DNA from: Lingula anatina | Lineage: Eukaryota > Animalia > Brachiopoda | Assembly (NCBI GenBank): GCA_051362555.1 | Contig: CM120648.1 | Span: forward strand, 5,700,587 to 5,764,586 | Direction of reading: 5' to 3' | Length of the DNA: 64,000 bases | Shown here: positions 2,075 through 58,965 of the stretch, piece by piece | How the letters are laid out: each line of letters starts with the position of its first letter | How positions within the stretch are numbered: position 1 is the first letter of the stretch | Notes under the pieces: generated by a model | What the model was told of the DNA's origin: nothing | What the model saw: only the letters and a program-made list of their open reading frames with translations | Databases searched by the model: none | Position numbers and translations under genes: made by a program

Positions 2075-2922
2075 CTTCTGAGAAACTCTCTATGCCAGGG
2101 AAGGAACGCCGGGCCTTGGTGGTTGGCCGGGGCGTTACAACTGAGATGTAGACGCGTAAAGATATCGTACTGACTGATACCTTCGATGTAAATGGTCTTC
2201 ATTTTGTGCAGGGCGGCGTGGAACCTCTTTCTCTCTGAGTCTGTCAACAGGCGGTATTCTTTCCTCGTGGCCCGCGGGAGATCGTAAGGAGGGTACGGCG
2301 TGGCGCCGCGTCTCGGTCGAGATTTCGAAGACGGGCCAATTTTAGCCCTTCCTAGTGATTCTATCCATTCACGTGCAGATTTCGAAAGTTCGGCAAAAGG
2401 TGGGAGTTTTTCAGGTTTGGTAGAGTTTTTATTTGCGTCTTTAAAGATAAATTCCTTTGCGTCGTCACCTGATCCTTCCTCATCTTCAGAGCCATCCTCG
2501 TTGCTGATGTTCACTGGCCCTTTACTTTTGCTTTCTTTGGCCTTTGGCTTGCGTGCCTGTCTACGTTCTCGTTCGTGGCTCTCAGTTTCAGTTTCGTTTT
2601 TGTCATCAGACCCGTCCCCATACAACCAAGTATCATTCTTATCGTCAAGATGAGGATCTATTTTAAACCATAACTTCTGTAGTCTCTTGAGGCAGAAATT
2701 ATCCCGTTCTTTATCAGAATAATCCAGCAATGACTCTTCCTTGTCGATTTCTTCTTTGCAGGCGAAATACTCTCCTAATTCGGGTATGGCCGATTTACGG
2801 ACAGGTTTCACGAGATCCTTTGGGTTCGTAGGCTCTTCTTCTTTGGCTTTAACTCCACAGCTTTCGGAAATGAGCAAGGAAACAGCCACGAGAGACAAAA
2901 CCGTGAATCGGTACTGTCTCAT
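2075..2922 (-). CDS. Tyrosinase-like (type-3 copper) secreted protein, first coding exon; downstream exons not identified in the window
   Basis: ATG at 2922 gives MRQYRFTVLSLVAVSLLISESCG, a signal-peptide-like start. A charged low-complexity region follows, then RKEYRLLTDSERKRFHAAL...YDIFTRLH...ANHQGPAFLPWHREFL, the CuA motif of tyrosinases. A splice donor AG|GTACGT follows at 2075/2074. Confidence 0.9.
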
Positions 2923-9430: not shown

Positions 9431-11750
9431 AACTAGAGGATCAGAGAGGCGATACCGCCTCCGGATATTGTACCACCAGCTGGAGTAAGCGCATTCGTAT
9501 GGACCCCCCCCCCCCTCCAAAAAGGGACACCATCACCAGTCTTGTGCTTGACAAGCTCTATAAGATGCAATCAATAAGAGTTCTCAAAATATGCAAAAAA
9601 ATATAACTAAAAATGGTACAATCAAGCAGATTTTCGAATTGACTTGCATTTTCCTACCCTTGATCACTCCTGTATTCTCTAGACAAAAGGCCTATTGGTT
9701 TTCCTTGAAAAGTGTTGTCAATGGTGCATATATGCTGACAAAAGAGAAAACCTAGGGGCAACAAGGGGCACATCTCTGCTAGTTTTAAAGATATGAGAGG
9801 CAAGAAAATATGCAAAGCTCAGTTCATGGTGAAAAAGTAGGTCAAAGGTCAATTTCAACATCATAGTATATGAATTTCTATTCAAGTTCAATAGCAACCA
9901 TGGGCATTTCTTTGCCAATTTTGCAGATTTAAAGGCCTGAAAACATGCAAAAAGCAGTTCATCATAAAAAGTAGGTCAAAGGTCAATTTCAAGGTCACAG
10001 ATTGCTAGTGTATTACTTCCTATTCAAGTTCAATAGTAACTATGGACCTATCTCTGTCAGTTTTGGAGATAAAGGAGAAAGAAAATTTGCAAAGTTCAGT
10101 TCATAGTAAAAAGACGGTCAAAGGTCAATTTTAAGGTCACAGTAAATTGCCAGTATATGACTTACTACTTAAGTTCAATAGTAACTATTGACCTATATCT
10201 GCCAGTTTTAATGATAAAACGGAAAGAAAATTTGCAAAGTTCAATTCATGATGAAAAGTAGGTCAAAGGTCAATTTCAAGGTCACACTTAGATTGCCAGT
10301 ATATGACTTCCTATTCAAGTTCAATAGTAACTATGGACCTATCTCTGCTAGTTTTGGAGATAAAAGGGAATGAAAATTTGCAAAGTTCAGTTCATGGTGA
10401 AAAGTAGGTCAAAGGTCAATTTAAAGGTCACAGTAAATTGCCTCTAATGACTTTCTATTTAAATTCAATAGTAACTATGGGCGTATCTTTGCCAGTTTTG
10501 GAGATAAAAGGGAACAAAAATTTGCAAATTTCAGTTCATGGTAAAAAGTAGGTCAAAGGTCAAATTTAAGGTCACAGAAAATTGCCAGTATATGACTTCC
10601 TATTCAAGTTCAATAGTAACTATGAACCTATCTCTGCCAGTTTTGGCGATAAAAGGGAACGAAAATTTGCAAAGTTCAGTTCATGGTGAAAAGTAGGTCA
10701 AAGGTCAATTTAAAGGTCACAGTAAATTGCCTCTAATGACTTTCTATTCAAATTCAATAGTAACTATGGGCGTATCTTTGCCAGTTTTGGAGATAAAAGG
10801 GAACGAAAATTTGCAAAGTTCAAATCATGGTGAAAAGTAGGTCAAATGTCAATTTTATGGTCACTGTTAAATTGCCAGTATGTGACTTCCTATTCAACTT
10901 TAATAGTAACTATTGACCTATCTCTGCCAGTTTTGGAGATATAATGTTACAATTCTGAGTTACAATAATGTGCCACCACAATGTACTTTTTAATACAGCA
11001 TAACACCAAAACCGTATGAAATACAAAAAAACGGAGACCACATGCAATGTTGGGCTTTACATGCTCTACAAAATGCAAAAAAGAATGGGTCGCTAGCATT
11101 AACGGTTCCTGAATTAGAGACAGTCTTCAGTTTCGGTATCTTATGGCCGTTTCTCCCGTGAAAATGCACCGATTGACCCCAAATTCACGGAGATGAAAGA
11201 TGACCCAAAGGGTAACACTTTCCAATAATATTATTGGTTAAGTCTGTGTAGTGTCTGAATAACAGCGCAAATAATATTTTTTTTGTAAAAAATTTCATTT
11301 TTTTGAAAATTTTGGCCCGTTTGACCTTGCAATAAAGGTCAAAGGTCAAATCCAAGGGCATATTTGAAATCTACACATGACTTTTGGAAAGCTATCTGTA
11401 GAAATTTTTCCCATAATTCCTTCCGTAGGGTAGATAATTGGCATTGAATTTTCAAAAATTTTGACAAGGGTGCATTTCAACGAGCGTCACGCCCAGGTTA
11501 ATGCACCGACTGAGACAAAAAAACCTGGGGGTTCAAGTTGAGGTTATATGTGACCTAAATCCAAGAGATGGGGACAGGGGTCCTTGCGGTCTAGGAGGAG
11601 AAGCGGTAACGGTGACTTGTATCCGGCGCCAGTACGCGGAGCCGGCGGAGCTTACGGAGCCGGCGGAGCCAATGGAGCCGGCGGAGCCGGACGAGACGGG
11701 TCGGGACTAAAACCATGAGTACCGCCAGCGTACACGCTGGTGGTACTAAT
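9431..11750. mobile_element. Helentron/HINE-like non-autonomous rolling-circle element
   Basis: One end has AACTAG, the hairpin GAGGCG-ATAC-CGCCTC (9446-9461) and sub-TIR GTACCACCAGC (9470-9480). The other end has the palindrome AGTACCGCCAGCG-TACA-CGCTGGTGGTACT (11718-11747), which contains the inverted sub-TIR. An internal tandem array is present. Confidence 0.7.
9805..10940. repeat. Tandem array of ~140-bp units (AAAAGTAGGTCAAAGGTCAATTT.AAGGTCAC...CTATTCAAGTTCAATAGTAACTATG), about 8 copies
   Basis: The core recurs near 9835, 9968, 10110, 10255, 10400, 10545, 10688 and 10833. Confidence 0.9.
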
Positions 11751-14428: not shown

Positions 14429-14818
14429 TGCGCTTTAAATAGGTCAACTCAATCAAGGTGAGAGCCGAGCGTGGGTCAACTTAACTGGGTCAAGCTACTG
14501 CATGTTTACTCAACTATCGCAATGCTGACTGTGTTGATGGCGCATTTTTAAAGAATGTCGAAACAAAAACAAACAAACATAGATCTACAAACAAACAAAC
14601 AAACAAATAAATAATAATGTTTTGAGGATGGGACAACTCAGACTTTTCCGCAAAATAGATGAAGGGCTGAGGGGGGGAGGGGGAGGCAAAATAAATTTTC
14701 GAGAGAAGGGGTTGCAAAATAAATAAATATTCGGGGGTAGGACTGGAACACAGATTTGAAGTAAAATATGTAAACTATGAATTTCGGTTTATTGCTTATT
14801 TCCAGAGTTGGGCATAGC

Positions 14819-15426
14819 CACCCTGAGCTTCAGAGATAACTTGACACTAACCTCTTCACTATAGCCTATCTTCATCGTGTCAAGTTACCTCTGACGAAAA
14901 TAGTTTGACCTAGTTTATATAAGCCAATCGAATCCATGTTTCAAAATTTTTCACCAAAGTTTGGTGAAAACGCTGATTGGTTGACCGTCAATCGGCAATC
15001 CTCGGCTGATTCCGCAAGCTCCATATATACTAACAACATAGTTATTGTCGAGTGCGGAGACATCCGAGTAGTTCCGAGTGCATAACCGTACACAAAGAAA
15101 GCATGGAGTATATCGGAATTGAAACCAGAGCAGTATGATGCCCTGCATAATTATCTACTGAGGGATGATGTATTTTGCGTGCTGCCCACAGGTTACGGCA
15201 AGTCCCTGATATTCAGCCTTATCTTTGATTGGTCCGGATTTGAACAAAGCGAGCTTTGACTCGTTCGCGTTCATTGGCTAGATCGTTCAATGAGTCATTG
15301 AGTGCGGGCTTTAAATTTGATTGGCGGGCGGCGGAAGCAATCGAATGTGGTCAGAGGTAACTTGACACGATGAAGATAGGCTATAGTGAAGAGGTTAGTG
15401 TCAAGTTATCTCTGAAGCTCAGGGTG
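14819..15426. mobile_element. Non-autonomous TIR DNA transposon carrying a RecQ-like helicase fragment (AcademH-like by content)
   Basis: 77-bp perfect TIRs (14819-14895 and 15350-15426) with CA...TG ends. 8-bp TSD GGCATAGC at 14811-14818 and 15427-15434. Internal 15116-15217 (+) translates to ELKPEQYDALHNYLLRDDVFCVLPTGYGKSLIF. Confidence 0.85.
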
Positions 15427-17817
15427 GGCATAGCGAGAATCTTTATATATTTTATGCTTTATGGCGGAAAATAATGACGGCTGGCGCTGTCGATAATTTC
15501 TTAGATCAATGCAGCACTGCAAGTGTGATTATGATGAAATTATATACTGTAAGTAGGCCTACCATAATGATAAATTGATCGTCTTTAGAAAAAGACAAAG
15601 GCCTACAGAGAGGCCATAATGATATTTACACATCAAAGGAAAACTATCCCGACAAATCGATTTTTCCTTTAAAAAGAATAATTTTCTCCCATTCACGAAT
15701 CATTGCTCGAACATTCCCCACATTTCGATTGGGGGTAGGCCTATTACCCTGCACTTCCATTGGAGGTTTTGTATTATTTCTAATTAGATTCTTCAGTTAT
15801 GAAAGGCTTAATTGTCAGGAATTTTTGACCGCCAAGCGTTCCTGTACATTCCAAAATAAAATATCAGCATCTGGTACTTTTATTCGTGCGGTTTTATTAT
15901 TTTTCTTTTATTCAATTATTTTTTAGGGATTACTAGGCAAGCTATAAATAGCTTTGCAGGTTATGTACTAGTAGGATAATGTGACTTTGGCATATTTTCA
16001 CATGCGGATGGTTTACGTTCTAGATAGACCCTACTACTTACTCACTTAGGCCCGTCGCCCAGAAATTATTAATTTTTAGTATATGCCTTGCTTCGGTACA
16101 GGAATAGAGTATATGAAGTCAAAGTTATGACTGACATCGGTAGATACCCAGAACGCACTTCAACATCTCAACTGAAAATTGCAAATTGACATTTTGAACT
16201 TATTTGGCTGGATTATTTCTGCTTCAAAAAAGCCAGCATTTGTCCGCCCGCGTAAATAAGCTAAAATTCCGACGTGGCTATTTGTTCAAAATCTGATGTG
16301 TCATCCGAATTCGTTGAATTCCAACTTCTTCATTTCACCTTGTTTCTGGGTGAAACGCACAGAAAGTGACGCGCAACGAACTCTGCTGCCATATCATTAT
16401 TTTAACTAGGCATGTTTGCGTGGATTAATTATAAGTGGCTTTCTCAAATTTTTGTAAAGGCCGTGACACAAACTAATTTAGGAATGCGACGTTATTTCGA
16501 ATTCAGAACACGCACCTTATACCTTCTTATTACTGGAGACCTATTTGCAATTGGTTCGAATTCAAAATGTCAATCTGATCGTGCCTATGAATCTGAATAT
16601 GCGTCTGTATTAAATAGTGCCTGGTTCACTGACTGCGTTCATCGCAAGGAATAAGGCCGTGACAAGGAAAGGATGAAAAAGAAGCACCGTGTCTCTAGAT
16701 CTGTTCTCTCTGTACAAAATGTATCTAGGTCATTTTGTCTCTTTACCGCACGCGCTTTACGGCAAGACAGTTAAGTTACAAGGCCTTTTCTACAAATGTT
16801 TAGTGTAAAAATCGTTCAAAAGGGATAAAGTACCTGCAATTTTTCAAATTTAAAACGATGTTGAAAAATACTATCGAAATAATTTCCATGGCGTTGATAT
16901 ATTGACCTTTTTTTTACAGGTTCAAGCTTTATTTAAACTCCCATTGAATTCGGGTTGTTTTTAAATTTTAATTTGTAAATTATACTTTAAAAAAAAGTCG
17001 TGAGTGGGTCTTATATCAATTTATTCAACATTTTTAAATGTAGTCAACAGGGATGTAACAAATGAAATATTCTTTTGTATCAGTTATGTTAATAGTAAGA
17101 AATGCTCTGGCAGCCATAAAATAAACAGATATCTTTGGTAGATATGCCTTGAATCTATTTATGAACATCAAAAATGAAATAGAACAAATTGATAAAAAAC
17201 TTATTTAAATGAATCGCAGCATTAAGATTTGACCAAAAAGCAGCTATCGAGCATAAATATGTGTATTATCTATCTATTATTAAGCACGCTTCGAAAACAC
17301 TAGCAAACCATCAAAAGTTTAACTAAAGAAGTCACACACTTGAAGTCATTACTTTCAGATTTCTAGAGTATATATGATGTAATATAATATAATATAGTTT
17401 CCAATTCTTATGAGTATTAATTACTTTTTAAACTGTACTTACTAACATTCTTGTTATTATATATAGGTATGTACGGGTTCCCACATTCTCATAAGTTAAT
17501 AATTTTTAAAAACTGTACTTACTAACAAAAACTGTACTTACTAACATTCTTGTTAAATTGACAGATGCCAGTGCATGACACAAAAGGAATCTTAGGTTAT
17601 TTGTTCAGATGAAAGTCACATACTTCATAATGCATTATACAAACTACAACGTATATTTCTGTGCATTTCCTGTGTAAATATTTCAAAATTTCAAAATTAA
17701 GGCAAATGTCTGTGTTACGCACACACAGAGTCTCAGATAAAGACATTAGAGTACTGAAAACACGTTTTGTCTCAGATAAGGACATTAGAGTACTGAAGAC
17801 ACGTTTTGCCTCAAAGC

Positions 17818-18960: not shown

Positions 18961-19361
18961 CCCTCCTGCCCCTCCTAATGCCACTGTTTTAGATACTGCT
19001 GATATAGTGTTAGGTTTATACTACACGCTCCACTCTCTTCTTCTGTTCATTCGTGTGCTTTTCCCTGTATCAATCACTTTATTTTGCTGCTGCTATAGTA
19101 AAGCGATCTCTTGACGTCACGCAATTTTTCTCTTCAACGGCTATAAGCTATTAGCAAAATTAGTAAAGCGAAAACTTGGTCTTACGCCACTTTTCTTTCG
19201 CGACGGATGCCAAATATGCGATGTTTAAAAACTCTAAAATATTCTCATATTAGCAAAAATAAAAGAAGCATGTATAATTGATATTTGATTGACCGTCGCC
19301 GCACTCAAGCCAAATCAACTCAACACAGTTTTTCTCCATATCCCAAATTTTCTATCGCTGT

Positions 19362-20894
19362 TTACTGCCAAGCAGCTAGTCCGATCTTCTCCCACGCAGA
19401 TTTTCCGATGTTAAGAAAAGACAACCACAAGGGCATGCCATCCTTGGCCACGATTTTGTTGATCCAAGGCGCCATTTTGTACAGGAACCACACAGGCTGT
19501 AGAAGGCGATGGGCCCAGACTGGTGAGAAAGCCTCAGTGTAGCACGATGCCAGGACGCCGTTCACAATAATGGTGCCGCACCTGGTGTGAGGGTTGTATA
19601 GCCCTTGCAAAGTCTCCATCTTGATTTTAGTAACGGCCGAAAACTCCATGGTTCCATTTTCTGGAATGTAGGTGTATAGGTCATCGTCGATTTGCACATC
19701 CCTGGCGGGTACCATCGCCATCTTCCCATCTTGACCTTTGACATACAGGTAGTGACCCGGGCTGATGGATAGATGTTTTTGGTTCTCAGTCGTGAACACA
19801 AGGAAGGAAGTCTCTGTATTGGGATCAGCGTGACCAAACATGAAGATCTCTTGATAGTCCAGTGTGCCGTCTGGCAGAACAACTTGGACTTTATCTCCGT
19901 GCTGCAGAAGCTCCATTTTCAAAATGTCTCCAGAGGCAACGATGCAAGAAGCATCTTTTGGGAAACATTCTTCAGATTCACGGAGCTGTCGTCTAACTTC
20001 GGGGGTCACTTCATCCAAAATTCTATCTTTTATGTGTCTGGGAAATTTATTGTACTTTCGGATCAAGTTTCCTGTTGGCAAGTCGGTAAAAATCTTCAGC
20101 AATGATTTTATGTCTCTTTCCGACTGTTCTAAATCTGCTTGATACTTGACGGAGAGACTTGTTTCTTTTTCTAAAGCTCTCTGCTTTGCCTGCGCTACCC
20201 GCTTTGCCTCCTTAAGCTCCCTTTCCAACTTTCGGAGGGCTTCTTCTGCCTTCAAGAATAAATAATTTGTGTAGCATGCACCTTTGTTCTGTGCTACCAA
20301 TTTTTGGGCTTCATACAGCAGTTTCCTTCTTTCATTTTCTAAGTCTTTTCCTGGATTGGCTAGATTGTTACAGAATATGAATCTACTGCCACATTTTTCA
20401 AAAAGTACCTGGAATTCGGTTATTTGGATATTTGTCATATAATCAATTTCATTTGGGGTAATTTGGGGTCTAATTTGCAGGTGTTTTTCGTACACATCAG
20501 CATAAGTAATTACAATGATAACAAACCTATACATATCTGGACCGAACAGTTTTTCTACTTGATCAACGACGGCCGCCTCTTCCTTTGTAAATTTTTCGCT
20601 GTATTTCAAGACAAATAGTATAACATGGTAACCTTCAGGAGACAAAAGTACCGCTGAAGATATTTCATCGACAAGTTCTTTTTGGGTCATTGCGGTATCG
20701 AAAATCCCCGGGGTATCCACAACAGACAAGGTGTAGTATCTGTACCGGCATTCCCCCTTTTCACACTTCCTTGTGGTTGATTCTTGGCCAACACCGCATT
20801 TGAAGGCATTTAAATCGTTGAGTAAGGTGCACCCAAGGCTACTTTTTCCATGCCCTGTTTTTCCAAGGAGGAGGATATTAAAAGGGTTTTCCAC
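19362..20894 (-). CDS. Terminal exon: AIG1/GIMAP GTPase + coiled coil + Hog domain (Hint + sterol-recognition region) fusion, 510 codons
   Basis: Acceptor ttttcag|GTG at 20894. GTPase motifs: G1 LLLGKTGHGKSS, G2 STT, G3 VVDTPGIFDT, conserved box SPEGYHVILFVL..EKFTKEE, G4 TYAD, G5 FCNN. Heptad-like EEALRKLERELKEAKR. Hog motifs: CFPKDA (Cys codon 19967-19965), LSISPGHYLYV, ARDVQIDD, GLYNPHTRCGTIIVNGVLASCY, AHRLLQP, GMPLWLSFL. Confidence 0.93.
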   Translation of the reverse strand: MENPFNILLLGKTGHGKSSLGCTLLNDLNAFKCGVGQESTTRKCEKGECRYRYYTLSVVDTPGIFDTAMTQKELVDEISSAVLLSPEGYHVILFVLKYSEKFTKEEAAVVDQVEKLFGPDMYRFVIIVITYADVYEKHLQIRPQITPNEIDYMTNIQITEFQVLFEKCGSRFIFCNNLANPGKDLENERRKLLYEAQKLVAQNKGACYTNYLFLKAEEALRKLERELKEAKRVAQAKQRALEKETSLSVKYQADLEQSERDIKSLLKIFTDLPTGNLIRKYNKFPRHIKDRILDEVTPEVRRQLRESEECFPKDASCIVASGDILKMELLQHGDKVQVVLPDGTLDYQEIFMFGHADPNTETSFLVFTTENQKHLSISPGHYLYVKGQDGKMAMVPARDVQIDDDLYTYIPENGTMEFSAVTKIKMETLQGLYNPHTRCGTIIVNGVLASCYTEAFSPVWAHRLLQPVWFLYKMAPWINKIVAKDGMPLWLSFLNIGKSAWEKIGLAAWQ

Positions 20895-22411
20895 CTGAAA
20901 ATATAATGGAAGTTACCCTGCACATTTGATTTAAGTATTTGAGCGTGTAATTAAGGGTACTGTCATTAAACTTCCGAAAATGGCATTATGCGAGCATGTA
21001 ATAATCCAATTATTTACCATTTTGCTAATACAAAACAATAAAACAATAAAAAGCCCTTTAAAAACATAAAATATCGGCTTTCATGCTTCTCTTTGCTAAA
21101 CGTTGCCACCTCAGAAGTTTATCGTCATTTTAACAGCTTTCTATTTTGAGGTAAGGCAACAATGATATGGGGCATACATTCATCCAGATCTTTTCACAAA
21201 GATTGGCATAAGCGACGACAAGTGCATGGGCTTCAATCTACTGCAGTCATTTTGGTTGAAATATTTTTTGTCATGGAGTAATGAGACACAAATTAAAATG
21301 ATTCATTAAACAAAGGTATTATATTGCCTTTTAAGATAAAATCTGAACCAAGGCTACTACGCAAAATCTGACAGGGTTTTCAAGTGCTCAATAGTGTCAT
21401 GAAATTGGAGTTAAAAGGTGTTCATGAGTGTTCAGGTAAAGGAGAAATTTGAGAAACCAATTTTGAATTTTTACCACAATCATCGTCATCGGTAAAATTA
21501 AATTTATGTAAATATAAGGGAATTAAGTCAGTGGACACTGAAGATTCATCCATTTTTAAAACATGTACGTAAAGACAGAAATTAATGAGTCTTTGTCTAA
21601 CCCTGACATCGCCCTTAAGGAGGCTTTCTCATATCTTGGAAACACACGATCTGCCAAAGCGATTTTGATGGAGATTGCAAAACAAAATCTTCAGACCAAA
21701 TGAGTAGAATAGTAAAAAATAGGTCGTTTTCCAGAAGAACGTCACTTTTATTACATTGTGTTATTAGTGTATTGGGATTTTGCCAAAATGGTCCTAATCG
21801 GTAATCCTGTTCCAGCAATTTCAATCTTATGTGGATATGCTATAGTTCTTGGTAGAAATAAAAAATTAACAAAATAATATTTACTACATGTACCTGTTTT
21901 TTAGAGGGGGCTACTAGAAGATGCATTTCTGTTGGTTTTAACAAGGATAAATGTGGATTGCTTAGAATATTCTGTATCAGTAACTTTATAGCTGATTTTG
22001 CTTTAATGAAAATGGCATTTTCACTTTTATGTACCAGTCATCCAAATCATATACATTTGAACATCCCATTAATAAGAAATGGGTATTTGGATATTGATTT
22101 TTGGAGTTGATTTCAAAGCTCTTTGTAATGCCGCCACCTTGTTGTATTTTGCAGCAGTAAGTTTTGAGCCTTAATTTTTAGTAAAGCTTTTCTAAAATTT
22201 TTTTTAATGTAATAAGCACTAAAATAACGGTAAAGGGAAATTAAAAAGCGAAGGGTGGCATGACAATTATCTAAATGTTAAGTTCGCCTAATAATCACCT
22301 CAATCATACAAAGATTTGTGTGACAGCTTACTTATAAAGATTCTGTATTTCCGAATTTTCTTTACTCCATTAAGCTACCGGTAGGTTTATTTTATTTTTG
22401 ATTTTACTTAC

Positions 22412-22716
22412 TTGTGGTGGTGAGTGCTGCATGTCTTGGTCCTGACAAGCCCGCTGTGGTACAAAGACAGATGCCGAAGAAATGTGCGAACTATGTCTAT
22501 GTGCGTAAGATTCCGTATGCACACTCCTCGCTTCAGAAGAAGAACAGTTACTTGCGTCTCTATGAGGCGGGATCCTAACCTGTTCGACTTGAACATCAAA
22601 TGGGAGACCTGCCGGCACGGATTTAATGTACCTCTTTTTTGCTTCCCATAGAAAAGAGTCACCAGGTACGTGCTCAATTATCGGTGATGCTAACGAGGGA
22701 GATAAATCCAATTTAT
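22412..22716 (-). CDS. Internal Ser/His-rich linker exon of the GIMAP-Hog gene
   Basis: Acceptor gtatttcag|AT (phase 1) and donor CAA|GTAAGT (phase 0). The frame is open (KLDLSPSLASPIIE...MQHSPPQ). Phases join the 26937-26724 exon to the 20894 exon. Confidence 0.65.
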
Positions 22717-22950
22717 CTGAAATACAGCAATAAACTGATTTAAGTATACTGCACTGGTATATCCGATCTGAAGAAATGGTGTTGTAAGCCAGTTTGTAAA
22801 ACATATTCAATAAAATACATTTGCCTTCATTTATCATTATGAGGTTTAATTACTTAATATTTACAAGAATGGAAAGATTTAATAAATAAAAATAAGCAAG
22901 TGCAAAGTCTAGGAAAAAGCACACAAAGTCACTGAGCAAATGAGTAAAAT

Positions 22951-25900
22951 AACAAGGCAGCAAAGCTGTCTTATGTACAGACAAAAAGCGGACAATAACA
23001 ATGCGCAAAATAGGCTACTGTCAATTCTGAGACCAACTGACATTATGCTTAACTGCAAATTCTACATCAGATTTTATTATGCTCAACAGGTAATACCAAT
23101 GTAGGTAAAATGTGTAAGAAGCATAAGGCTTCAGGCCCATGGGAGTTCAAGTTCACACTTTGAAAATTCCAGAATGAGAAAAATGAAAATTTCACACAAA
23201 ATTGCATAAATTCAATAATAAATGATAACCCAATTGAGCTGGCTTTCTAATTTGAACTGCATGCCAATGCTAAAAATCATACTCGTAAGTTAAAAATAAT
23301 AATAAGTAACACAGTTTTCTTTTCATAATGTTTGTAGTAGCAGTGCAAAAAGATTTTTGTTGATTTAACATTACATAATAAATCACAGAAGAATTATCAC
23401 CAATTTTTTATTATTGGCTATAAATAGCATGGACATGTAGAAAATTTGATTACCATTTGGCTTCATGTCCATGGGAGCTCTGAGTCCCACAATCAATATG
23501 CCAATACAATAAAAATGAATATTTCACTAAAATGTATAACTTCCAGAAAAAGAAGCCAATTAAACTGCTTTTCCAACTCAGGCTGCATTTTAGTCCTGTG
23601 TGTCTTTTTTTGAAAGTTTGACAATCATAAGTAACATAGTTTTCTCATAATGGTCATCATGGCAACAACACCCACAATTAATTGTGTTTTCTTCTATTTT
23701 GATGCAATATTACATAATGCTTAACTACATAGTGACCATCAATTTTAAATGATAAAATATATGTATCATGGATTTTCAGAAAATGTTACTGGGTCTTCAA
23801 GCCCATGGAGGTTCTTAGTCACACCTTGAAAATGCCAATATGTGAAAAATTAAATTTTCACAAGAAAACTGTTTAACTGCCAGAAAAATTTACAAAACAG
23901 ATTGCATTGTCTACTGAAGCTGTATTTTAGTCCCATGTTTCTTTTCTGTAAGTTTGAGAACAATAAGTGACATGGTTTTCCTTAAATGGTTATCATGGGA
24001 GCAGTGCCCAAAATAGGGGTTTCTTCAAATTTTGATGCAATATTACATAATGTTGAACAGCATAACGACCATCAATTTTTAATAATTAAATATTAGTATC
24101 ATGGATATTCAGAAAATGTGACTAGCAAAGGTCTTCAGGCCCATGGAACTTCAAAGTCACACCTTGAAAATGCCAAAATATAAACAAGACAGCACTGTTC
24201 TGAAATGTTTTTTTTTTTTTCATTTTTAACAATTTTTAACATAAAACAAAATTAACAGTTTACTGCCATTTTATATGATCAACTGAAAAAAGTGATGAGA
24301 TGGGAAAAATATCAATAGATCAGTGTTAAATGTCCAATTTCCTCCATTCCGGGAATCTTGAACATAGTGAATGATTCAATCTGACAAACTGCAATGATAT
24401 GAGTTTATTTCCATTTTTTAAACTTTATGTTATAGTGAAGAAATGACAACAGCAGTTTGGAGCTTTGAAACGTTTATTCACCAACTCTTCTTTCATACAA
24501 CTTCACAAATATTTATACTCAATTTTTCCGTACTGATCACGCACTTACTTGTTTTCTTTTCCATTGTCTTTGCGTGATTACAAAATATTTTCCATTCGCA
24601 TGTTGCAAGTCACTATGCAACATTTCCTTATAAGGTAATCCCTAAGAGACTTGTTTTCAATTAAAGATATCTAAGATATTATTTGGATTACTCATACTTG
24701 GACCTTATCCAAAACTCAGTTATCATTTGATAAATAGATGATCAAAATTAAAATATGTTATGAAATTGACCAATCACATTAACTGTTACTGACTTTGACC
24801 TTTTCCATCTTTTTCTGACACCAAAAACATGTTCTACACTTGTTGGCTCTTGGAAAAACTTAATTTACACTCAATTACTCCCTGTCCTTTTACTCTTTTG
24901 ATTCCGCTTTAATTGTTATCTGTAATTAGTGAAAGTGTAAGTAATTTGCTTTACCACATATATTACACAATACACGATAACAAGTTTACCACCATTTTTA
25001 TAAAATCAACTAACAATGTTGTAAAGATGCAGGAAATGTCAACCAAACACTTTTTTATATTTTCTAGTTAAATAATGAGACTGTTAACATGCCTAGGAAT
25101 TGAGTCTGAGGAAATGTGAAGAAAAAAACAGCATAACTTCTACAATAATGACCCGATTATGCTATTTTTGGAACTCAACCTTCGTTTTAGCAAGATTGAC
25201 CACTCCTGTGAGTTTCATGACAATTGGCTTATCTGTTTTTCTTATATTGTGTTTACAGTGTTGCATATATGCTGAAAAGTGAAAACAAGACAGCACTGTT
25301 CTGAAATGTTTTTTTCTATTTTTAACAACTTTTTAACATAAAACAACAGTTTACTGCCATTTTTATATGATCAACTAAGAAAAGTGATGAGATGGTAAAA
25401 ATATCAATAGAACAGTGTAATGTCCAATTTCCTCCTTTCTGAAATTCTGAACATAGTGAAAGATTCAATCTGACAAACTGCAATGATATGAGTTTATTTC
25501 CATTTTTGAAACTCTATTACACAATACACAATAACAAGTTTACCATCATTTTTAACCAATCAACTAACAATGTTGTAAAGATGCAGGAAATGTCAAACAC
25601 TTTTACGAATCTTATTTGTTAAATAATGAGACTGTTAACATGCCTAAGAATTGAATCTGAGGAAATGTGAAAAAACAGCTTAACTTCTAAAATAATGGCC
25701 CAATTATGCTGATTTTCGAACTCAACCTGCGATTTAGCAAGATTGAACACTCCTGTGAGTTTCATGACAATTGGCTTATCTGTTTTCTTATATTGTGTTT
25801 ACAGTGTTGCATATATACTGAAAAGTGAAAAAACGGCATAACTACTAAAATAGTGGCCCGAACATGCCGATTTTCAAACTTGACCTGCGTTTTAGTAAGA

Positions 25901-26190
25901 TTGATTACTCCTGTGAGTTTCATGACAACAGGCCTTATGGTTTTCCTTAAAATGTGTTAACAGTGTTGCATATATGCTGAAAAGTGAAAAAACAGCATAA
26001 CTTCCACAATAATGGCCCGATCATGCTGATTTTCGAACTTAACCTGCGTTTCTGTGCTCTGTAAATATAAAGCCAAAAAGTAAAACTGTCTTCCACTTAT
26101 CGTGTTAACGCTGAAAGTGCACGGCGACGGCGACGACAGACGCAGGTGATGGCAATATGTACAGACACATCTGTGTCTGTACATAAAAAT
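22951..26190. mobile_element. Helentron/HINE-like element in the intron of the GIMAP-Hog gene
   Basis: AACAAG start, small hairpin GGCAGC-AAA-GCTGTC, sub-TIR TATGTACAGACA (22972). GACGG-type microsatellite and terminal palindrome TATGTACAGACAC-ATCT-GTGTCTGTACATA (26156-26185) followed by an A run. Internal tandem and duplicated blocks. Confidence 0.7.
24183..26050. repeat. Internal duplications and a ~155-bp tandem array within the Helentron-like element
   Basis: The block aaacaagacagcactgttctgaaatg occurs at 24182 and 25283. Units gcataact.c.a.aataatggccc...ctcctgtgagtttcatgacaa...cagtgttgcatatatgctgaaaagtgaaaa occur near 25130, 25678, 25836 and 25995. Confidence 0.8.
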
Positions 26191-26249
26191 ACGGGTTATG
26201 GGGTGAATATCGCCAAGTGTTTGAAGTGAATCTAGGCCATGGTCATTGT

Positions 26250-26417
26250 CAGGGGCGGATCCAGAGATATATTCTGACAGTCTTCCAAATTATCTTTGTT
26301 GATCCATCTTCCATTTTTGACCGTCTTCCCTCAGAAAACATTAGATGACTGACAACGTAAACTTGAAAATCTGACCGTCTCCCAGAAGACCCAGAAGACG
26401 GCCTAAATCCGCCCCTG
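26250..26417. mobile_element. Small MITE
   Basis: TIRs CAGGGGCGGAT and ATCCGCCCCTG, flanked by ATTGT on both sides. Confidence 0.6.
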
Positions 26418-26723
26418 ATTGTATAGATAAGGAATGCAAATATCATTCTAAAGGAGTGGCCATCCATTTAGAACTAAAGTATTAGAGTAAAAATGGAAAA
26501 AAATGGATCCAAGCACAGCAATGAATCGCCAGAAGGTGAAATTGTTTTTTTCCCCAGAAACATTCAATATGGCAGCTAAATCCCGTGCATAGTGCCTTTA
26601 CAGTAAACGAAAATGCCTGATTACACGGATTAACACAGTGATAGAATGCATACAGAGACTAACAATATAAATTCATTGTTGTCTTAGCGGTTTTTGATAA
26701 TAATCTCGCTTGACTGTACATAC

Positions 26724-26937
26724 TGGCAAAATCAATTATGGAGGGGTCAGCACGGACTTCTTTCAAGGCAGTCAGAAATAAGTCCTTGCCATCGTTTCTG
26801 TTATCCCGGATGTGGTCCCACCATTCAATGAGGAGTTCTGTCACAAGGTGACTTTCAGGAACAACAATCTTTAAGGTGTGTGCCAACCTCAATCTTTTGG
26901 AGTCATTTAATTTGTCGATCAACTCTTTAAAGCTCAT
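26724..26937 (-). CDS. Probable first coding exon of the GIMAP-Hog gene, encoding a death-fold-like domain
   Basis: MSFKELIDKLNDSKRLRLAHTLKI...VTELLIEWWDHIRDNRNDGKDLFLTALKEVRADPSII resembles the death-domain pattern (F..L...L.....LA..L.I / LL..W / L..AL.E). Acceptor ttgtag| at 26949 and donor GCC A|GTATGT (phase 1). An in-frame TGA just upstream supports this ATG as the start. Confidence 0.6.
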
Positions 26938-27710: not shown

Positions 27711-27891
27711 TAAGGCCGCATCCAGAACAGTGGACTAACTAGTCCAAGGATCAAATATGTCGTCCCACTAAAAAGCTTGCCGTCTAATCCGCTAATAGCC
27801 ACGGAATAGATTCCCCGCGGGGAAGTATTCAAGTGGGTCGTCCATATTTGACCAGCAGACTAGTTAGTCCACTGTTCTGAATGCGGACTTA
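27711..27891. mobile_element. Palindromic MITE (Tourist/Harbinger-like)
   Basis: TAAGGCCGCATCCAGAACAGTGGACTAACTAGTC ... GACTAGTTAGTCCACTGTTCTGAATGCGGACTTA, with TAA/TTA boundaries. Confidence 0.7.
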
Positions 27892-28519: not shown

Positions 28520-31500
28520 ACTGCATATATACCGGTTTTTAAGACAGGATTGTAAATTTGTAATGATTTTAACAAGGGTTAGTCTCTTTCTGAAAAGGTC
28601 TACCGTTTTATGAAGTTCTTGAAAGATGAGATTGAAGGTAAAGATTTAGTGGAGGAGGATAGTTGATCCCATGAAGACATTAGAAAATAGTTAACTGAGG
28701 TACGGGGGTATTTAGGAGGAAGTTTAAAGACTCTTGTTATTTTCTCGGGTTATGATTGGAAAAGGGTTTCTGGATGGGTGGAATATATCAGAAACATAGG
28801 AGGGGACCATATTCGCCATAACTGAAAACATAATTTTTTGAGCATGCATTTTTCTTCTATCAAATAGAGAAATTCGATTTAGTTGTTCAAATATTTTGGA
28901 GGTACAAGAGCTAGGTAAGGCTCCCAGTACTATTATGCCGGCTTGGTATTGAAGAGACGATAGTTTCGATAATTTCTTCTGGAGTGAGTTATGATAGAAG
29001 ATGTCACAGTAATCAAATTGTGATTGGATAAAGGCATTATATATTACATTTAAATGTTTGGACCTAACTTTGCAGTATAGAGGTTTTAGTGCATTTAAAG
29101 CCCGTTGAACCTTTTCGTAAACAAGAGCAATATGGTCGTTAAATTTTGTTTTGGATCAAGTACTAGTCCCAGGTGTTTATGGCTCTTAGACCTAATAATA
29201 ATAATTTATTAAGCCAATAAAATACAAATGTATAAAATCGGGAATCTTTTGCCCTGTAGTAGCGCCATTGAAATATAAAGAATGAAAATTAAAATTACAT
29301 GTTAGAGTTAAAAACAGTTACTGCCAAAGGATAAAAGCTATTTAAAAATCGCTTACTACCCTTAAAAGCTAAGAGTCTCGAATTGCTAGGTAAAAATTTA
29401 AAAAGGGTATGAGCTGGATGGGAACTGTCTCCCATTATTGATAATGTTTTCTTTTTAGTCCTGTCTAGATATATAGTATGGACGGCAGTTAGATCTGTTC
29501 CAATTAAAGTCCCTGCAGTTTCGACGATCTTTTCCAACTTGTTCCTCTCCTCCACAGTTGCACGTCCATACCAAACAGTTACTGAATAAGTTAAAATACT
29601 CTCTAAAACACACCTGTAAAAGTTCGTTAAAATAAACACATTCCTGGTAAAAGCTTTCAATTTCCTTAAGAAATACATTCGTTGACGTGCCTTTTTCAAT
29701 AGCTTTCTTGATGTTATCGCCCCAGGTTAACCATTATTCAGCTGAACCCCTAGTAATTTATAATTGGAAACCTGTTCGACCGCTTTACCGTTAATTTCCA
29801 AGGGATTTTTACTTAACTGATTTCTTCTGAAGTCTATGATCATTTCTTTTGTTTTGCTCACATTTAATATCAAGTCATTGTCTGTGCACCAATTTACTAA
29901 ACTTGTAACATGGTATCATGGTATTGTTAATATACAATCATGGTATTGCTATTGTTAATATACAATCCAGGGTATGTATTAGTATTATTTTCTTTGCCGA
30001 ATATAATTTCGCAGCACTTTGCCGGTTTAAAATTCAGTTTCCATTTATTGGACCAATTTTCGATGGTACGTAGGTCACCTTGTAATATAGCGTGTGAATT
30101 GACATCACCCCGACGGGAGGGCATAAAGAGGGAAGTATCATCAGCGTAGATTAAACAATCAGTAGAGAGTCCGTCAGGGAGGTCATTAATATATATGAGA
30201 AAAAGTAACGGGCCAAGTATACTACCTTGGGGTACACTTGTATTTATGTAACCTCCCTTAGACAAATTAGACGATTTCCCACCGACACGTACTTTAACTC
30301 TTCTATATATCAAGTACGATGACAATAGTGCATGAAGTTCGCCGATTAGACCGTAAGACTTAAGTTTAAAAAGAAGGAGTGAATGGGGAACTCGGTCGAA
30401 TGCAGCCTCTATATCGAGAAAGACTCCTTTGGTGTCATAACCATTAATAGAGTTACTCGTAATTAAATTATGAATCGCCAAGAGCTGGTACTCTGTGCTA
30501 TGACCCTTCAAAAAGCCGGATTGTTTAGGGTATAGGAGTTTGTTGTCCAGAATAAAGTTAATCACCCTATTATATATTATTCGCTCTAAAATCTTAGATA
30601 TAATACTAAGTAAAGAAATTGGTCTATAGTTTAAAATAGATTTTTTATCATCCTTTTTAAAAATTGGGCAAATTTCGGCAATTTTCCAGATGTTGGGGAA
30701 GGTATTAGACTGTATAATTGCATTGAACAAAATATTAAGGGGCTTCACCACTGAGTTTTTGGAGAGTTTTATCATCTTGACGGTAATCAGGTCAGAGCCG
30801 TTAGCTTTATATTGGGTCTAGATCATCAATTATCGATTTAATTTCACTACTTGTATCATCAGCGTAGATTAAACAATCAGTAGAGAGTCCGTCAGGGAGG
30901 TCATTAATATATATGAGAAAAAGTATCTGAGATAGGGTAGCATTAGTTCTTACAGGAAAGAGAATTTCACCAACATTTGCTACAGAGTCCGAGTGGTACA
31001 TTGATGAGAAATAAAACAAAAATTCATCAGCCTTTTCTTGATCAGTAGACGCAACAGATCCATTTCTCGGGTTTTTGAGAATAGGAATAGAAGACGATCG
31101 CTCTTTCCCAAGAATATTTTTCTTTGCGGTCCAGTATAATTTGCTATCATCGCCTTTGTTGTCGAGGCTCTCTATTTTAGAATTAAGGAATGGTTCTTTT
31201 GTTTTAATTATTAATTCTTTAACTTTTATCGCCTGAATTTTGTAATTATTTTCATTCTTTTCTGAAGGTTTAATCCTCATTTTTTATATAGTTTCTTTTT
31301 CTTATTTAACTCATGCTTAATTTGGTCATTGAACCATGGCTTGTCATTTGACCTGATCAGCCTCCTTTTATGGGGTATATGGCGCTTGTTAAAAGAGAGT
31401 AAAGAGTCAGTAAAAACTTCAGTTTTTACGTTAATATCATGATCATTTTTTGAAAATAAAGTTTCCCAGTCATATTCGCTTATGTCTTTGTCTAAAGCCA

Positions 31501-31580
31501 CCACATTATCCTGATCGTACTTCCATATTGTTCTATATACAGGATCGTGCTTGGGTTGAGTAATGCCAAATTCAGTAACG
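28520..31580 (-). mobile_element. Degenerate CR1/L2-group non-LTR retrotransposon (ORF2 with RT), 5'-truncated and interrupted
   Basis: KPWFND, PNIWKIAEICPIFKK, NYRPISLLS, QSGFLKGHSTE, VFLDIEAAFDRVPH, VPQGSILGPLLFLIYINDL, YADDT, then HKHLGLVLD after the nested insert. Frameshifts and stops are present; boundaries are approximate. Confidence 0.9.
29194..29925 (-). mobile_element. Nested 3' fragment of a Rex1/Babar-like LINE
   Basis: KKARQRMYFLRKLK...FYRCVLESILTYSVTVWYG...SHPAHTLFKFLPS...RFLNSFYPLAV, the typical Rex1/Babar C-terminus. AATAAA and a (TTA)n tail lie at 29210-29194. It splits the host RT between NTMIV and RSKSHKHLG. Confidence 0.8.
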
Positions 31581-31589
31581 AGGGTGGAT

Positions 31590-32998: not shown

Positions 32999-33223
32999 TT
33001 CTGATGAACACTGCATGACTGCGTAGCAGGAATCGCACCGAAGAAATGCGTACGTCCCAACTGTGTTTGTCACTTTTCCTGTACAGACGCTTCTCGTTAT
33101 GTACGTTCCCCTGTACATCAGATGTGAGACCTGCAGATTTGTAGACCTGTTTATATTTCTTTCTGTGGAAAAATGTGCGTTGAACGATTGGTGACGCTAA
33201 CGAGAGAGATGAATCCAGTCTAT
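32999..33223 (-). pseudogene. Diverged orphan copy of the GIMAP-Hog linker exon
   Basis: atttcag|AT AGA CTG GAT TCA TCT CTC TCG TTA GCG TCA CCA ATC (RLDSSLSLASPI, versus KLDLSPSLASPI at 22716). The flanking intron is similar and the GTAAGT donor is kept, but the 3' end is frameshifted relative to the paralogue. Confidence 0.6.
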
Positions 33224-33588
33224 CTGAAATAAAGCAACGAACAGATTTGAGTATACGTTAAAGTGAAAAGAGCCTTCGTTGGATCTACATGTACCAGTAA
33301 AGCGTAAAATCCTTATGTCAGTAATCAACAGAATTAAATGCGATGTGTATATTAGTATCGTTCTATCGTGCTGTTCTCTAGCATTTTACCTGTTCACACC
33401 TTTCTTAAAGAAAATACCGGGTAAGTAAAAATAAAAAAAAACAGTGTGAACAGTTTTTTCTAATATCTGTATTTATCACTTGCAGCGAGCTTATATCAAT
33501 AGCCCAGGCAAAATAGGGGTTCATCTAGACAAAATTGCAACAGAGTTTATTTCTTCAACATCACCTGAGAACACCAAAGCATCATACT

Positions 33589-33820
33589 CAGGCCTACCCA
33601 AATACCAGATTCGGCACATAAGGATCCTTTATTAACCGGTATATCGGACCACACTACCCGTTTTCAAGGTGTGTGTTAGATCGCAATTCGGAGTATCATA
33701 CCCCAGAGACTTATACTCCGAAATGCGATCTGACACACACCTTGAAAACGGGTAGTGTGATCCGATATACCGGTTAATTCAGGATCCTTATGTGCCGAGT
33801 CTGGTAGTTGGGTAGGCCTG
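33589..33820. mobile_element. Near-perfect fold-back MITE (232 bp)
   Basis: ~108-bp inverted arms CAGGCCTACCCAA...TTCGGAGTAT / ATACTCCGAAAT...TTGGGTAGGCCTG, with an ATACT direct repeat on both flanks. Confidence 0.85.
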
Positions 33821-34199
33821 ATACTACCTCTGTAAAAGTCCCACAAAATCCCTGCATGTGAAACATATAAAAGTCCAAAATGACCGCCAATTGCGATGGA
33901 ATTATACTTGTCGCACTAGTATACTAGTATACATGGTCTTATTTAACTCACTAACGCCTTATAAAGCTCATTCATGCCACTATTTGCATATCTGTGTGCA
34001 ATACAGACACATCTACAGGGTTTCTTTTAATTATCTGGGGTTGTTTTACACCATTAAAATTATAAAATTGCCTCCAACTGCCCCAGAAACAATGTTTTTC
34101 ACAAACACTCGCCTTTAAAGATTTTTGTTACACCATGCTTCATTATTAGTTTTGACTAAATACACATCTCAGCTTTTGTTTTGATTTGTATCTTTATTC

Positions 34200-37600: not shown

Positions 37601-38258
37601 AGTTTATTACCATGCTTTCTAATCAAGTATACATATACATAACAAATAATCGGGGTTATCCACAAGAAGTAGCCCTTGAAAACACGTAGCCTTAATGAAA
37701 TCAATCATGTGTCCAGTTCAGCGTAACATACAGACATGTACCGGTGTAACGTGACAGAGAGTTCCCAATGATAGAGAGCTCCCTTCCCTTTCATTAATTT
37801 GCATAGGTAAGCCTCTCCCTAGATTCTGACACACTTAGGTACATGTACAGGCTCATCCTAACCATTATAACTGAATGGACGGCGGACGTCCTGTTACCCT
37901 CAGTTTCGTTACACCGGTATATGTGCATGTCCATGTACAATGCAAAACAACGGTAATAACCAGGCTCTCGTAAATGTACCTGCAATCTACATGATATTTG
38001 CAAGTAGTTCAGCAGAATAATACGACCAGGTCGCTCTACCGCTTATTATATATAAACTATTAAATTTTAGGATATATTTATCCAAATATCAAAATTAAGT
38101 CTATGATGCCGAAAGGAGATTGCACATTCTTGTGCTCGTTAGGGTATAAGCACTATAATAACGGGTTAGCGAGAATTTTTGATAGTAATCAACATTAGTT
38201 ATACACACGTGGGTGATTATTTTGCAGCGACCCTCATTTCTGAAGTGTTTCAAGAGCG

Positions 38259-40444
38259 TCAGAACCAAGCTACGTACAGCCCCATCACTCTCCTAAGGAG
38301 CGCATTAGTAAACACACCGTAAGGGTCAAGTGATTTTCTAATATTTAAGAAGACTCTCAGGTCGTCGCCGTAGATGTTTCTGGCCCTCTGTTGGAGATCG
38401 GGGTAGATGTCCAGTAGTTTCGCCCAGTGGGGTGCGCCACCTTTGATGCCAACGGAGTCACTCTCCCATGCGGAAATTATCTGAATTTTAAACAAAATGC
38501 ATCCTAAATATCCAGCTTTAATACTACAAAAGCGCTGTATTTGTTGAGTTTATTTTTCAAGACAAGGCTTGTATTAAAATAAGATAAGGAAAACAGCTAT
38601 TCAAGAGTATTGAGAATAAGCGTCAATTTAGAGGACAGTATCTGCAAGATGGGTTTCGACGCATGACATTGTACCATTAAAGATATATTTTACAAAAAGA
38701 AATGAAGAAATAAATAAAATAAAATGAAAAATGTATGCAGGAGATTACCGGGTATATGTTAACAATTCCAAATTGACTAAGAATATGAGAATCCTCATGT
38801 TAGATATTAAAACACTCATCTTAATTTTAGGTTTAAAATATTTTTATCACTTAATTCAAACTCCGTATTCACTATCCGTATGTTTCCTCTAGGCTATTTT
38901 ATATATGTGCGTGAGTGTGTGTGTGTTAGAGAGAGAGAGGCTGCGTACGTGCGCACATACGGTAAATTATATGTAGCATTATAATATACCTTTGTATAAA
39001 TATCCCTACTACGTTGAAGCTCATTAGAGTTTGTCCACTTTGACTCGAGGTTAAATGTCCCAAAGACGTCCCCAGTGGCTGCGAGCTGACCAGAAGGCAC
39101 CCTGATCCAAGCAGACGGAAGTGACGTAGCACATAGGTGGCAGATGGTACTGCGGACCCATCGGAAAAGGTTGTCGTGCAGATTTTGAACGCCATCCTTG
39201 CGCGACTCGTGATTAAGCGTTGACGCTAGAGACTGAAAGATTATTATTTTCTCAGTGAAAGAACTGGTGCCGTAATTTTGTCACGAATCAGTATTATTCC
39301 TCAAATATTTCATACATAGGTGATAAATTGGATTTTTCATACATACCCTTGAATTAACTACACTACTCTCAGTGAGTCAAAATTTTTACTGTAATAGCCA
39401 GCGAAAACTTACCCGAATGGCTGCGGCGCCTGCAGTGAAATCAGGGTCGGGAAAGTCGTACTCTGTAATGACCAAATTATATGGCCAGGCAGGCACATGA
39501 ACGGCTTTATGTAATGGTACTACTTGGGAGGGAGGAAGCACCAAGCGAGTCTTAAAAACTGCCTATTATAAAGAAACATATAAGATAACAAATTTGAACA
39601 CATTACCATGCAGAGGGGCAAATGAAAATACATGCTAAAAGTTATAACAGGCAAAATGTTATGCCTGTTGGTTAAATCTCATATATCTAGTAATTTGTCT
39701 GATCATTGACGGCCATTTTGGAATTTCTGAAAATATTTCAACACAAATAAATACAAACCAAGAGTCTTGTTAAAGCTACATGTACATTTCTGATGAATAA
39801 TAGAGGCGATCTACACTTTGCACGGTGCCCACAGTTTATTAGGGATACGTCTGGGGCAAAAAAAGCAGTGTTACCTCGTTTGTGTGACAAAAATGCCAGT
39901 AATGTATTGGTAAGTGTAGAGTTATGCGGGGTTAAACTGTTACGGTCTGCTTGTTTTAGTGACCCTTACATGAAGCACACACAGGTGTGGAGTAACGCAT
40001 GCAGTGCGTGCCCCCGACTTTGGATTCAATTTTGCTACCCAACAACCCAAGAGGGATTGCAATACTCGTATGGACATAAATTCGCCCCAATTATTATCCC
40101 AATTACCTAGTTATTTCGTAGAGGATAAACAGTAAATTATAAATTAAAGCCTGGTGTAGACTATATATATATCTCAATTTTTTGCATGCATACAGAAAAC
40201 ATTCCAATACAAGCCTGTGACCTTCATTCTTAAGACCGCCATCTAGTGTCCAACAAGGCCTCGATGTACTAGTCAAGCCATCATAAAGACATCCATTTAT
40301 TTTTTGCTGGGTTGAAAATCGATACTGTCCGGATTTGCTCCACAGTTAAAACGAGACGTGACAACTCGGATGCAGGGATTTCGTGTCAATTCCGTGTCTT
40401 TAAATGTAAAGCAGAGTAAGGGAATCTCTACGTATGGAAACACA

Positions 40445-40500
<56 letters not shown>

Positions 40501-44471: not shown

Positions 44472-44511
<40 letters not shown>

Positions 44512-51355: not shown

Positions 51356-51396
<41 letters not shown>

Positions 51397-51410
51397 AGCA
51401 CGCACGCGCG

Positions 51411-51460
<50 letters not shown>

Positions 51461-53037: not shown

Positions 53038-53069
<32 letters not shown>

Positions 53070-58844: not shown

Positions 58845-58877
<33 letters not shown>

Positions 58878-58965
58878 AAGAGAATGGAGGAGGAGAAACA
58901 TATCACGTCTTTGTTTCCCTTTTTCCAGAATCGTCACCAACAATATCCAGAGCGCCAGATTAGTA

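Follow-up and report, generated by a model that had tools for sequence, protein, structure and literature searches.

A GIMAP-type GTPase with a C-terminal Hog domain in Lingula anatina, a candidate for cytosolic self-cleavage and lipid anchoring

Human GTPases of the AIG1/GIMAP family have been proposed to build scaffolds when GTP-bound, and several of them carry hydrophobic membrane anchors (a C-terminal transmembrane anchor in GIMAP1, GIMAP3 and GIMAP5, a double hydrophobic segment in GIMAP2) (PMC8201404). Fusions of this GTPase with a Hint domain have been described in four Acropora millepora transcripts, interpreted as protein splicing (PMC3723955), in the transcribed Biomphalaria gene Bg1869, with no signal peptide on any snail AIG gene (PMC7053062), and in lancelet CARD+AIG1+HINT genes, whose architectures were called unique to amphioxus among animals (PMC12373286). 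Hint and GIMAP are handled separately in the passages of PMC3417536, and PMC8857920 contains none on Hint. Here we describe a gene on the minus strand of a 64,000-nucleotide stretch of Lingula anatina DNA (contig CM120648.1 of assembly GCA_051362555.1, positions 5,700,587 to 5,764,586; hereafter the window), which encodes an AIG1 GTPase, a helical linker and a Hedgehog-type Hog domain in one chain. The core of the gene is real and is a further member of an already published AIG1+Hint architecture. The novelty that an earlier note on this DNA had seen in the fusion itself therefore does not stand (coral, snail, lancelet and fungal cases are in print), and a survey of relatives found further proteins of this layout. 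What appears to be new, at the level of sequence, is a family-wide His46/PxW signature of the Hog domain and the mutual exclusion of this domain and GIMAP-type membrane anchors.

An AIG1 GTPase and a Hog domain in one exon

The gene is built around an open frame of 516 uninterrupted codons (19362-20912, minus strand). Its description in the earlier note as a single exon with an AIG1 GTPase, a helical linker and, from codon 310, a Hog domain is confirmed by the frame itself, by Pfam and by a structural model; codon 310 of exon 3 is the Cys of a CFP motif, counted from an acceptor at 20894 (Table 1). With both domains inside one exon, the predicted introns cannot separate them. The GTPase matches Pfam AIG1 (PF04548) at E 2.4e-40 over residues 12-230, with 138.6 bits against a curated cut-off of 27, and has its motifs in order (G1 GKTGHGKS, G2 Thr47, G3 DTPG, G4 TYAD, G5 Asn183). 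An AlphaFold model of exon 3, based on a 30-row alignment and with a mean predicted local distance difference test (pLDDT) of 84, matches GIMAP2 (Foldseek E 7.3e-18) and the Hedgehog Hint domain (template modelling score, TM, 0.96; root-mean-square deviation 1.0), which confirms the assignment rather than activity, since AlphaFold was trained on GIMAP and Hint folds. By domain, predicted fold and motif order the protein belongs to the AIG1/GIMAP family, as had been claimed. Its conserved box has Lys in place of the usual Arg, a residue that we take to be catalytic in AIG1/GIMAP GTPases and that is present in 102 of 129 relatives lacking a Hog domain and in 15 of 23 that have one; the Lys recurs in 7 of these 23 and is shared by another Lingula anatina protein of this kind (P0002, see below). 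The model has helices at 217-275, 281-289 and 292-311 over the linker, and no transmembrane segment was found between GTPase and Hog domain. The absence of a signal peptide, also claimed earlier, holds as well, there being no hydrophobic N-terminal stretch (best 19-residue hydropathy 0.45).

The Hog region matches Pfam Hint (PF01079) at E 2e-34 over residues 312-487, above the curated cut-off, and contains a Hint fold starting with Cys, a T/SxxH motif, SCY and a C-terminal helix-loop-helix recognition region, so that the claim of a full Hog domain with intact cleavage residues (Cys1, SxxH, Cys143) is borne out. A family profile aligns to residues 257-460 of Drosophila Hedgehog (Hh), both recognition helices included (E 3.1e-33). 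In an alignment of 29 relatives, of which three are near-copies of others, Cys1 is kept in 27, both the Ser/Thr and the His of TxxH in 29, and Cys143 in 26, and His occupies the position of the Hedgehog general base Asp46 in all 29 as well as in this protein. Recognition helix 1 retains its His and Pro (H374, kept in 26/29; P379, in 29/29) and has Trp for R381 (kept in 24/29), with Leu at the F377 position, as in Drosophila. Helix 2 starts GMPLW, as against GIHWY in Hedgehog, and Trp stands at the Y435 position in 22 of the 29.

An intein was considered and rejected, as the Hint domain ends in SCY followed by recognition helices, as in Hedgehog, and Intein_splicing is absent from the nine Pfam families found at E up to 0.1. 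The hallmark of inteins is a C-terminal His-Asn followed by the nucleophile of the C-extein. As a separate observation, a trypsin-like protease from Porphyridium (P0015) is fused to a Hog domain with His at position 46, so this residue is not confined to AIG1 fusions.

Proposed membrane attachment and fate of a predicted thioester

AIG1 proteins with and without a Hog domain differ in their anchors. Comparing 24 Hog-bearing proteins (the present one included; three with a gap below 19 residues dropped) with 109 Hog-less relatives (27 short tails dropped), we found a hydrophobic 19-mer between GTPase and Hog domain in none of the former, and a hydrophobic 19-mer or a CaaX-like end in 49 of the latter (Fisher p 7.7e-6, uncorrected for relatedness). 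P0042, a Hog-less protein whose GTPase groups among the Hog-bearing ones, ends in CNIL. Of 136 Hog-less AIG1 proteins (P0003-P0164), 27 have Cys at position -4, as against about 1.9 expected from neighbouring positions, and 19 of these ends are CaaX-like, which suggests that prenylated GIMAPs exist. The contrast, together with P0042, supports the idea put forward in the earlier note that a membrane anchor is replaced by the Hog module, although it does not tell a covalent lipid from the Hog helices themselves.

We put forward, at about an even chance, that this GIMAP-type GTPase with its Hog domain cuts itself in the cytosol at the Glu-Cys bond and leaves a sterol, or a lipid alcohol resembling one, on the C-terminus of the GTPase in place of a GIMAP anchor. 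Judged from sequence, self-cleavage of this protein is likely, and a sterol tail on the released GTPase could equally well be present or absent. A precursor made in the cytosol would form a thioester at Cys1 with the aid of SxxH and pass it to Cys143 as in Hedgehog, a step in which we have good confidence. The amphipathic C-terminal helices would bring the precursor to a membrane and there offer a lipid hydroxyl to His46 for activation, a step whose overall chances we see as balanced. Once cut free, the GTPase (482 residues, 55 kDa, in a long form; 316 residues in a short form) would remain membrane-bound through its lipid tail and, like GIMAP2, would form oligomers in the GTP-bound state, probably in an innate-immune or cell-death role, and the 22.6 kDa Hog fragment would be spent after cleavage. 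No result points to the target membranes named in the earlier note (lipid droplets, lysosomes or pathogen-containing membranes). Engineered D46H (D303H) Hedgehog is active, accepts more sterols (PMC9163320) and autoprocesses in 293T cells (PMC12054796); the missing Hedgehog residues thus lower membership in that family but are compatible with a Hedgehog-like working. The disulfide between C1 and C143 is dispensable for folding (PMC12054796), so a cytosolic location is no bar, and Phe is tolerated at Y435 of human SHH (PMC7242414).

Several points weigh against this proposal. As of 2020, such sterol transfer had been seen in Hedgehog proteins alone (PMC7242414), and Hedgehog processing occurs in the lumen of the endoplasmic reticulum with protein disulfide isomerase (PMC3051819). 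HWY is replaced by PxW, H433 being Pro here and in 27 of the 29 relatives; R381, needed in SHH, is Trp in this copy; and the residue before Cys1 is Glu where Hedgehog has Gly (Gly in 2/29). In human SHH, cholesterol transfer is lost in the H433A and R381A mutants (PMC7242414), so that Pro433 and Trp381 speak against a reaction just like that of Hedgehog. The proteins in the anchor contrast are not phylogenetically independent, neither type of anchor occurs in 60 of the 109 Hog-less ones, and the Hog helices themselves could be the anchor. The immune role is at most a likely one, suggested by family association and by the CARD and MACPF-like heads of relatives. Finally, RNA depth was zero over 19903-20805 (GTPase and linker) and over exon 2 in all four RNA runs used (four of nine with the same label, each read to about 6-25%, their origin from the same organism as the window not being established).

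The missing transmembrane helix would be accounted for equally if the Hog helices held the uncut precursor at a membrane until water or a small thiol cleaved it to free an untagged, soluble GTPase, which we consider unlikely. The recognition region of SHH alone sends GFP to the Golgi, an SHH mutant without helix 2 cleaves with no cholesterol transfer (PMC7242414), and the loss of HWY throughout the family would fit such a release as well. However, the two helices and an aromatic side chain at Y435 persist in the family, and its invariant base at position 46 is one that Hedgehog can do without in simple thiol cleavage: Hedgehog D303A retains cleavage by dithiothreitol and loses full cholesterol transfer, so that a conserved base points to transfer onto a nucleophile and not to cleavage alone. 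That nucleophile might also be something other than a membrane sterol (another lipid, a modified or microbial sterol, or a protein), with cleavage serving as a sensor or ligation step, and we rate this as improbable. His46 broadens the substrate range in Hedgehog, the PxW is conserved but unlike HWY, a departure with a parallel in the adduct recognition region of nematodes (PMC2362128), and the CARD or MACPF-like heads of relatives would suit triggered activation; yet no result indicates a candidate nucleophile, and helix 1 is close to that of Hedgehog.

Just as improbable, in our estimate, is that the family is active while this paralogue is silent, decaying or unable to process itself. The zero depth over GTPase, linker and exon 2, the changes particular to this copy (Trp at R381, Glu at -1 and a conserved-box Lys), a frame-shifted exon 2 copy upstream and the frequent dispensability of GIMAP genes in lancelets (PMC12373286) would all agree with a silent copy. 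Against it stand the intact 511-codon exon with all catalytic residues, the presence of the same Trp and Lys in P0002 (the Lys also in the other relatives counted above) and a low depth over the 3' end in one run; with runs partly read and of unestablished organism, the RNA result is no support for expression rather than evidence of silence.

Gene structure, expression and the N-terminus

Exon 3 has its first Met only after the P-loop, and an upstream coding exon is therefore required. The three-exon chain of Table 1 has AG/GT signals and compatible phases (1, 1-to-0 and 0) and would give 683 residues with the Hog Cys at residue 483. Exon 2 is the sole open phase 1-to-0 exon in a scan of the intron, with three possible acceptors; its frame stays open in 14 of 5000 shuffles and that of exon 1 in 56 of 5000, both exons having been picked post hoc. 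The last seven codons of exon 2 (MQHSPPQ) align without a gap to the annotated start of P0002, a match that ranks first among 107 open donor-adjacent 7-mers of the window and lends homology support to the junction of exons 2 and 3. The same match also raises a form of 517 residues that starts at the conserved Met in exon 2 (22432) and omits exon 1, which from the sequence would be as plausible as the 683-residue form. A further coding exon upstream of exon 1 was rejected, with stops in all three frames soon after the acceptor; with an acceptor at 26949 an in-frame stop precedes the exon 1 ATG. The copy of exon 2 upstream has the acceptor and donor context of exon 2 and an ATG six codons before the donor, nearly in the same place, and its end is frame-shifted relative to exon 2. 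It is an orphan, its own GTPase or Hog exon being absent from the window, and no second copy of AIG1, Hog or exon 1 was found in the 64 kb.

Table 1. Coordinates in the window of the gene, its domains and motifs, and related features
Feature	Position	Strand	Basis or remark
Exon 1 candidate, coding	26724..26937	-	ATG at 26937, 71 codons + 1 base, phase-1 donor; splice signals
Exon 2	22412..22716	-	305 bases, phase 1 to 0; linker without Pfam match; internal ATG at 22432
Exon 3	19362..20894	-	1,533 bases (511 codons): AIG1 GTPase, helical linker, Hog domain, stop codon
AIG1/GIMAP GTPase domain	20223..20879	-	Pfam PF04548; GIMAP4 match E 4.4e-30
Charged helical, coiled-coil-like linker	19980..20264	-	41% E/K/R/Q; final helix just before the scissile bond
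Hint autoprocessing domain	19536..19967	-	Pfam PF01079; alignment to Drosophila Hh 1AT0, 6TYY, 6TD6; TM 0.96
Cys1, Glu before it	19965-19967	-	Alignment to Drosophila Hh
His at Hedgehog Asp46 position	19830-19832	-	Alignment to Drosophila Hh
SPGH in place of TxxH	19752-19763	-	Alignment to Drosophila Hh
SCY with Cys143 (motif J)	19539-19547	-	Alignment to Drosophila Hh
Sterol/adduct recognition-like region, amphipathic helices	19368..19523	-	Predicted helices and family profile
Poly(A) signal AATAAA	19078..19083	-	Sole canonical one within 1.86 kb past the stop
Exon 2 paralogous copy	32999..33223	-	225 bases, 84% identity over 70 bases

The exon chain of about 683 residues proposed in the earlier note thus stands as far as splice signals, phases and the homology at the junction of exons 2 and 3 are concerned, but the RNA check it called for did not confirm it: in the four partly read runs, no exon junction of this gene was among the 15 read joints listed. 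Depth over exon 1 was at most 0.33. One oligo-dT run (X7) had low depth over 19000-19902 with a peak of about 21 on the most conserved part of the Hog domain, a signal that fits either the 3' end of this gene or a close paralogue. Most mapped reads fell on intron repeats.

The death-domain-like N-terminus that had been proposed is not borne out. Exon 1 matched no Pfam family even at E up to 10 and no sequence in the PDB, a homologue search yielded none among 26 candidates and an Atlas search no usable match, and its score against the CARD profile lay below that of 310 of 500 shuffles. A single-sequence model with no alignment behind it gave four helices at pLDDT 64, and a death fold was absent among the matches listed for it, the best of which (VIA-align Z 6.5) were unrelated helical bundles; the model being weak, this blank fold comparison, the sixth blank test, does not refute a death fold. 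The resemblance is one seen by eye. Such heads do occur in the family, with CARD in 4 of 26 AIG1+Hog relatives and a weak DED, below cut-off, in P0102, so a death fold is still plausible here.

The window as a whole resembles AT-rich animal DNA with introns and repeats. An exon at 2029-2991 (minus strand) is part of a protein whose N-terminus is hydrophobic and contains the beginning of a tyrosinase domain (E 2.1e-4, slightly short of the Pfam cut-off), and one at 61149-61955 (plus strand) belongs to a Major facilitator transporter (MFS_1 E 6e-24), with a possible first exon near 58825-59235. The segments 38257-45981 and 47457-53265 form a tandem segmental duplication (about 6-8 kb, 70-84% identity). 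Broken frames at 28724-31588 (minus strand) resemble, by eye, reverse transcriptase and endonuclease remnants of a long interspersed nuclear element. A tandem array of units of about 145 bases lies at 9758-10952, and the intron repeats at 22950-26420 are partly related to it and have heavy RNA depth, drawn from copies elsewhere. Inverted repeats at 14818-15427, 33588-33821 and 27711-27891 resemble non-autonomous DNA transposons, one of them with 78-base arms of 100% identity.

Relatives and comparison with known systems

Among 163 relatives (14 from one search and the best 150 from another, one being shared), a collection that does not contain the window's own protein, 26 have AIG1 followed by Hint. 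Their sources include Lingula (2), the mussel Potamilus (2), Haliotis (4), Plakobranchus (1), Physella (2), Bulinus (2), Branchiostoma (4), sea cucumbers (3) and Macrostomum (1), and one more clusters with Bradybaena. With such relatives in other phyla, the claim of an amphioxus-only architecture (PMC12373286) is not borne out. A homologue search with the Hog domain only returned P0002 alone among 435 candidates. In an unrooted tree of 153 GTPase domains (10 short domains, three of them Hog-bearing, dropped; no coral or fungal sequences; a set biased to best matches), 24 Hog-bearing and 3 Hog-less GTPases are split from the 126 others with a FastTree support of 0.976, and a quick IQ-TREE run on 61 rows gave this split a value of 82 in the Shimodaira-Hasegawa-like approximate likelihood ratio test (SH-aLRT). 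Distances between the GTPase domains correlate with those between the Hog domains (Mantel rho 0.66, 0 of 2000 permutations). The strong splits of the two trees agree in part, the Hog tree recovering 4 of 6 from the GTPase tree and the GTPase tree 5 of 9 from the Hog tree. These results fit an old AIG1-Hog fusion among the animal members, a single origin not being proven.

As side observations, the Lingula-type Hog domains (P0001, P0002, P0096) group with those of lancelet and sea cucumber and not with those of molluscs (FastTree 0.986), and a MACPF/stonustoxin-like domain is found in 9 of 19 long N-termini of AIG1+Hog relatives (P0036, P0048, P0084, P0096, P0067, P0132, P0068, P0072 and P0118), at Pfam MACPF E 0.0015-0.0046 (below cut-off), with a common profile and an Atlas score of 0.96; proteins combining MACPF-like, GIMAP and Hog parts occur in molluscs and Lingula, and a literature search turned up no passage on this combination.

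More tentatively, and with somewhat less than an even chance, the AIG1-Hog family of brachiopods, molluscs, flatworms, echinoderms and lancelets may be old and form a second, cytosolic sterol-ligation system, in which a natural His46/PxW enzyme would lipidate immune GTPases with CARD, DED-like or MACPF-like heads and would add a third type of GIMAP anchor beside transmembrane helices and CaaX tails. The trigger might be how much sterol a target membrane contains. If true, the sterol chemistry of Hedgehog would gain a second, non-developmental use in the cytosol and GIMAPs a third mode of anchoring. The family also provides natural counterparts of D46H, a variant that is an engineered one in the passages cited.

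The closest known protein is XP_013410208.1 of Lingula anatina (P0002, annotated as 'protein Spindly-like'), which likewise consists of AIG1, a coiled coil and a Hog domain, has 47% identity with this protein over the GTPase and 74% over the Hog region, and is its sister in both domain trees. Both have the start motif, His46, SPGH, Trp for R381 and PxW in common, but P0002 has a linker of about 250 residues (about 80 here), no annotated N-terminal extension and Ala before Cys. The Acropora, Biomphalaria and lancelet genes have the same domain order as this one and, in the passages cited above, are listed by domain and interpreted as cases of protein splicing or proteolysis, with neither a sterol anchor being proposed nor any assay described; in the literature searched, subscription papers not included, no such proposal and no assay of an animal AIG1+Hint protein was found.

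GmGIN1 of the fungus Glomus mosseae, an AIG1/IAN-like GTPase with a bona fide Hog domain (motifs J, K and L) and no signal peptide (PMC2362128), is matched here by AIG1 followed by Hog in one chain, again with no signal peptide. It differs in being fungal, and the likeness is one of published domain description. GmGIN1 reportedly cleaves itself in vitro, and such earlier biochemistry may lower the novelty of the present case.

Human GIMAP2, GIMAP4, GIMAP5 and GIMAP7 have the GTPase fold, the motifs and a helical extension as in this protein; GIMAP2 and GIMAP5 among them bear the hydrophobic anchors named above, and no matched GIMAP chain covers the Hog region. The Hedgehog autoprocessing domain (Drosophila HhC, 1AT0; D46H mutant, 6TYY) has the same Hint fold (TM 0.96), Cys1, T/SxxH, Cys143 and two-helix recognition region, whereas the Lingula protein is without a Hedge domain or signal peptide and has His for Asp46, Glu for Gly(-1), PLW for HWY and Trp for R381.

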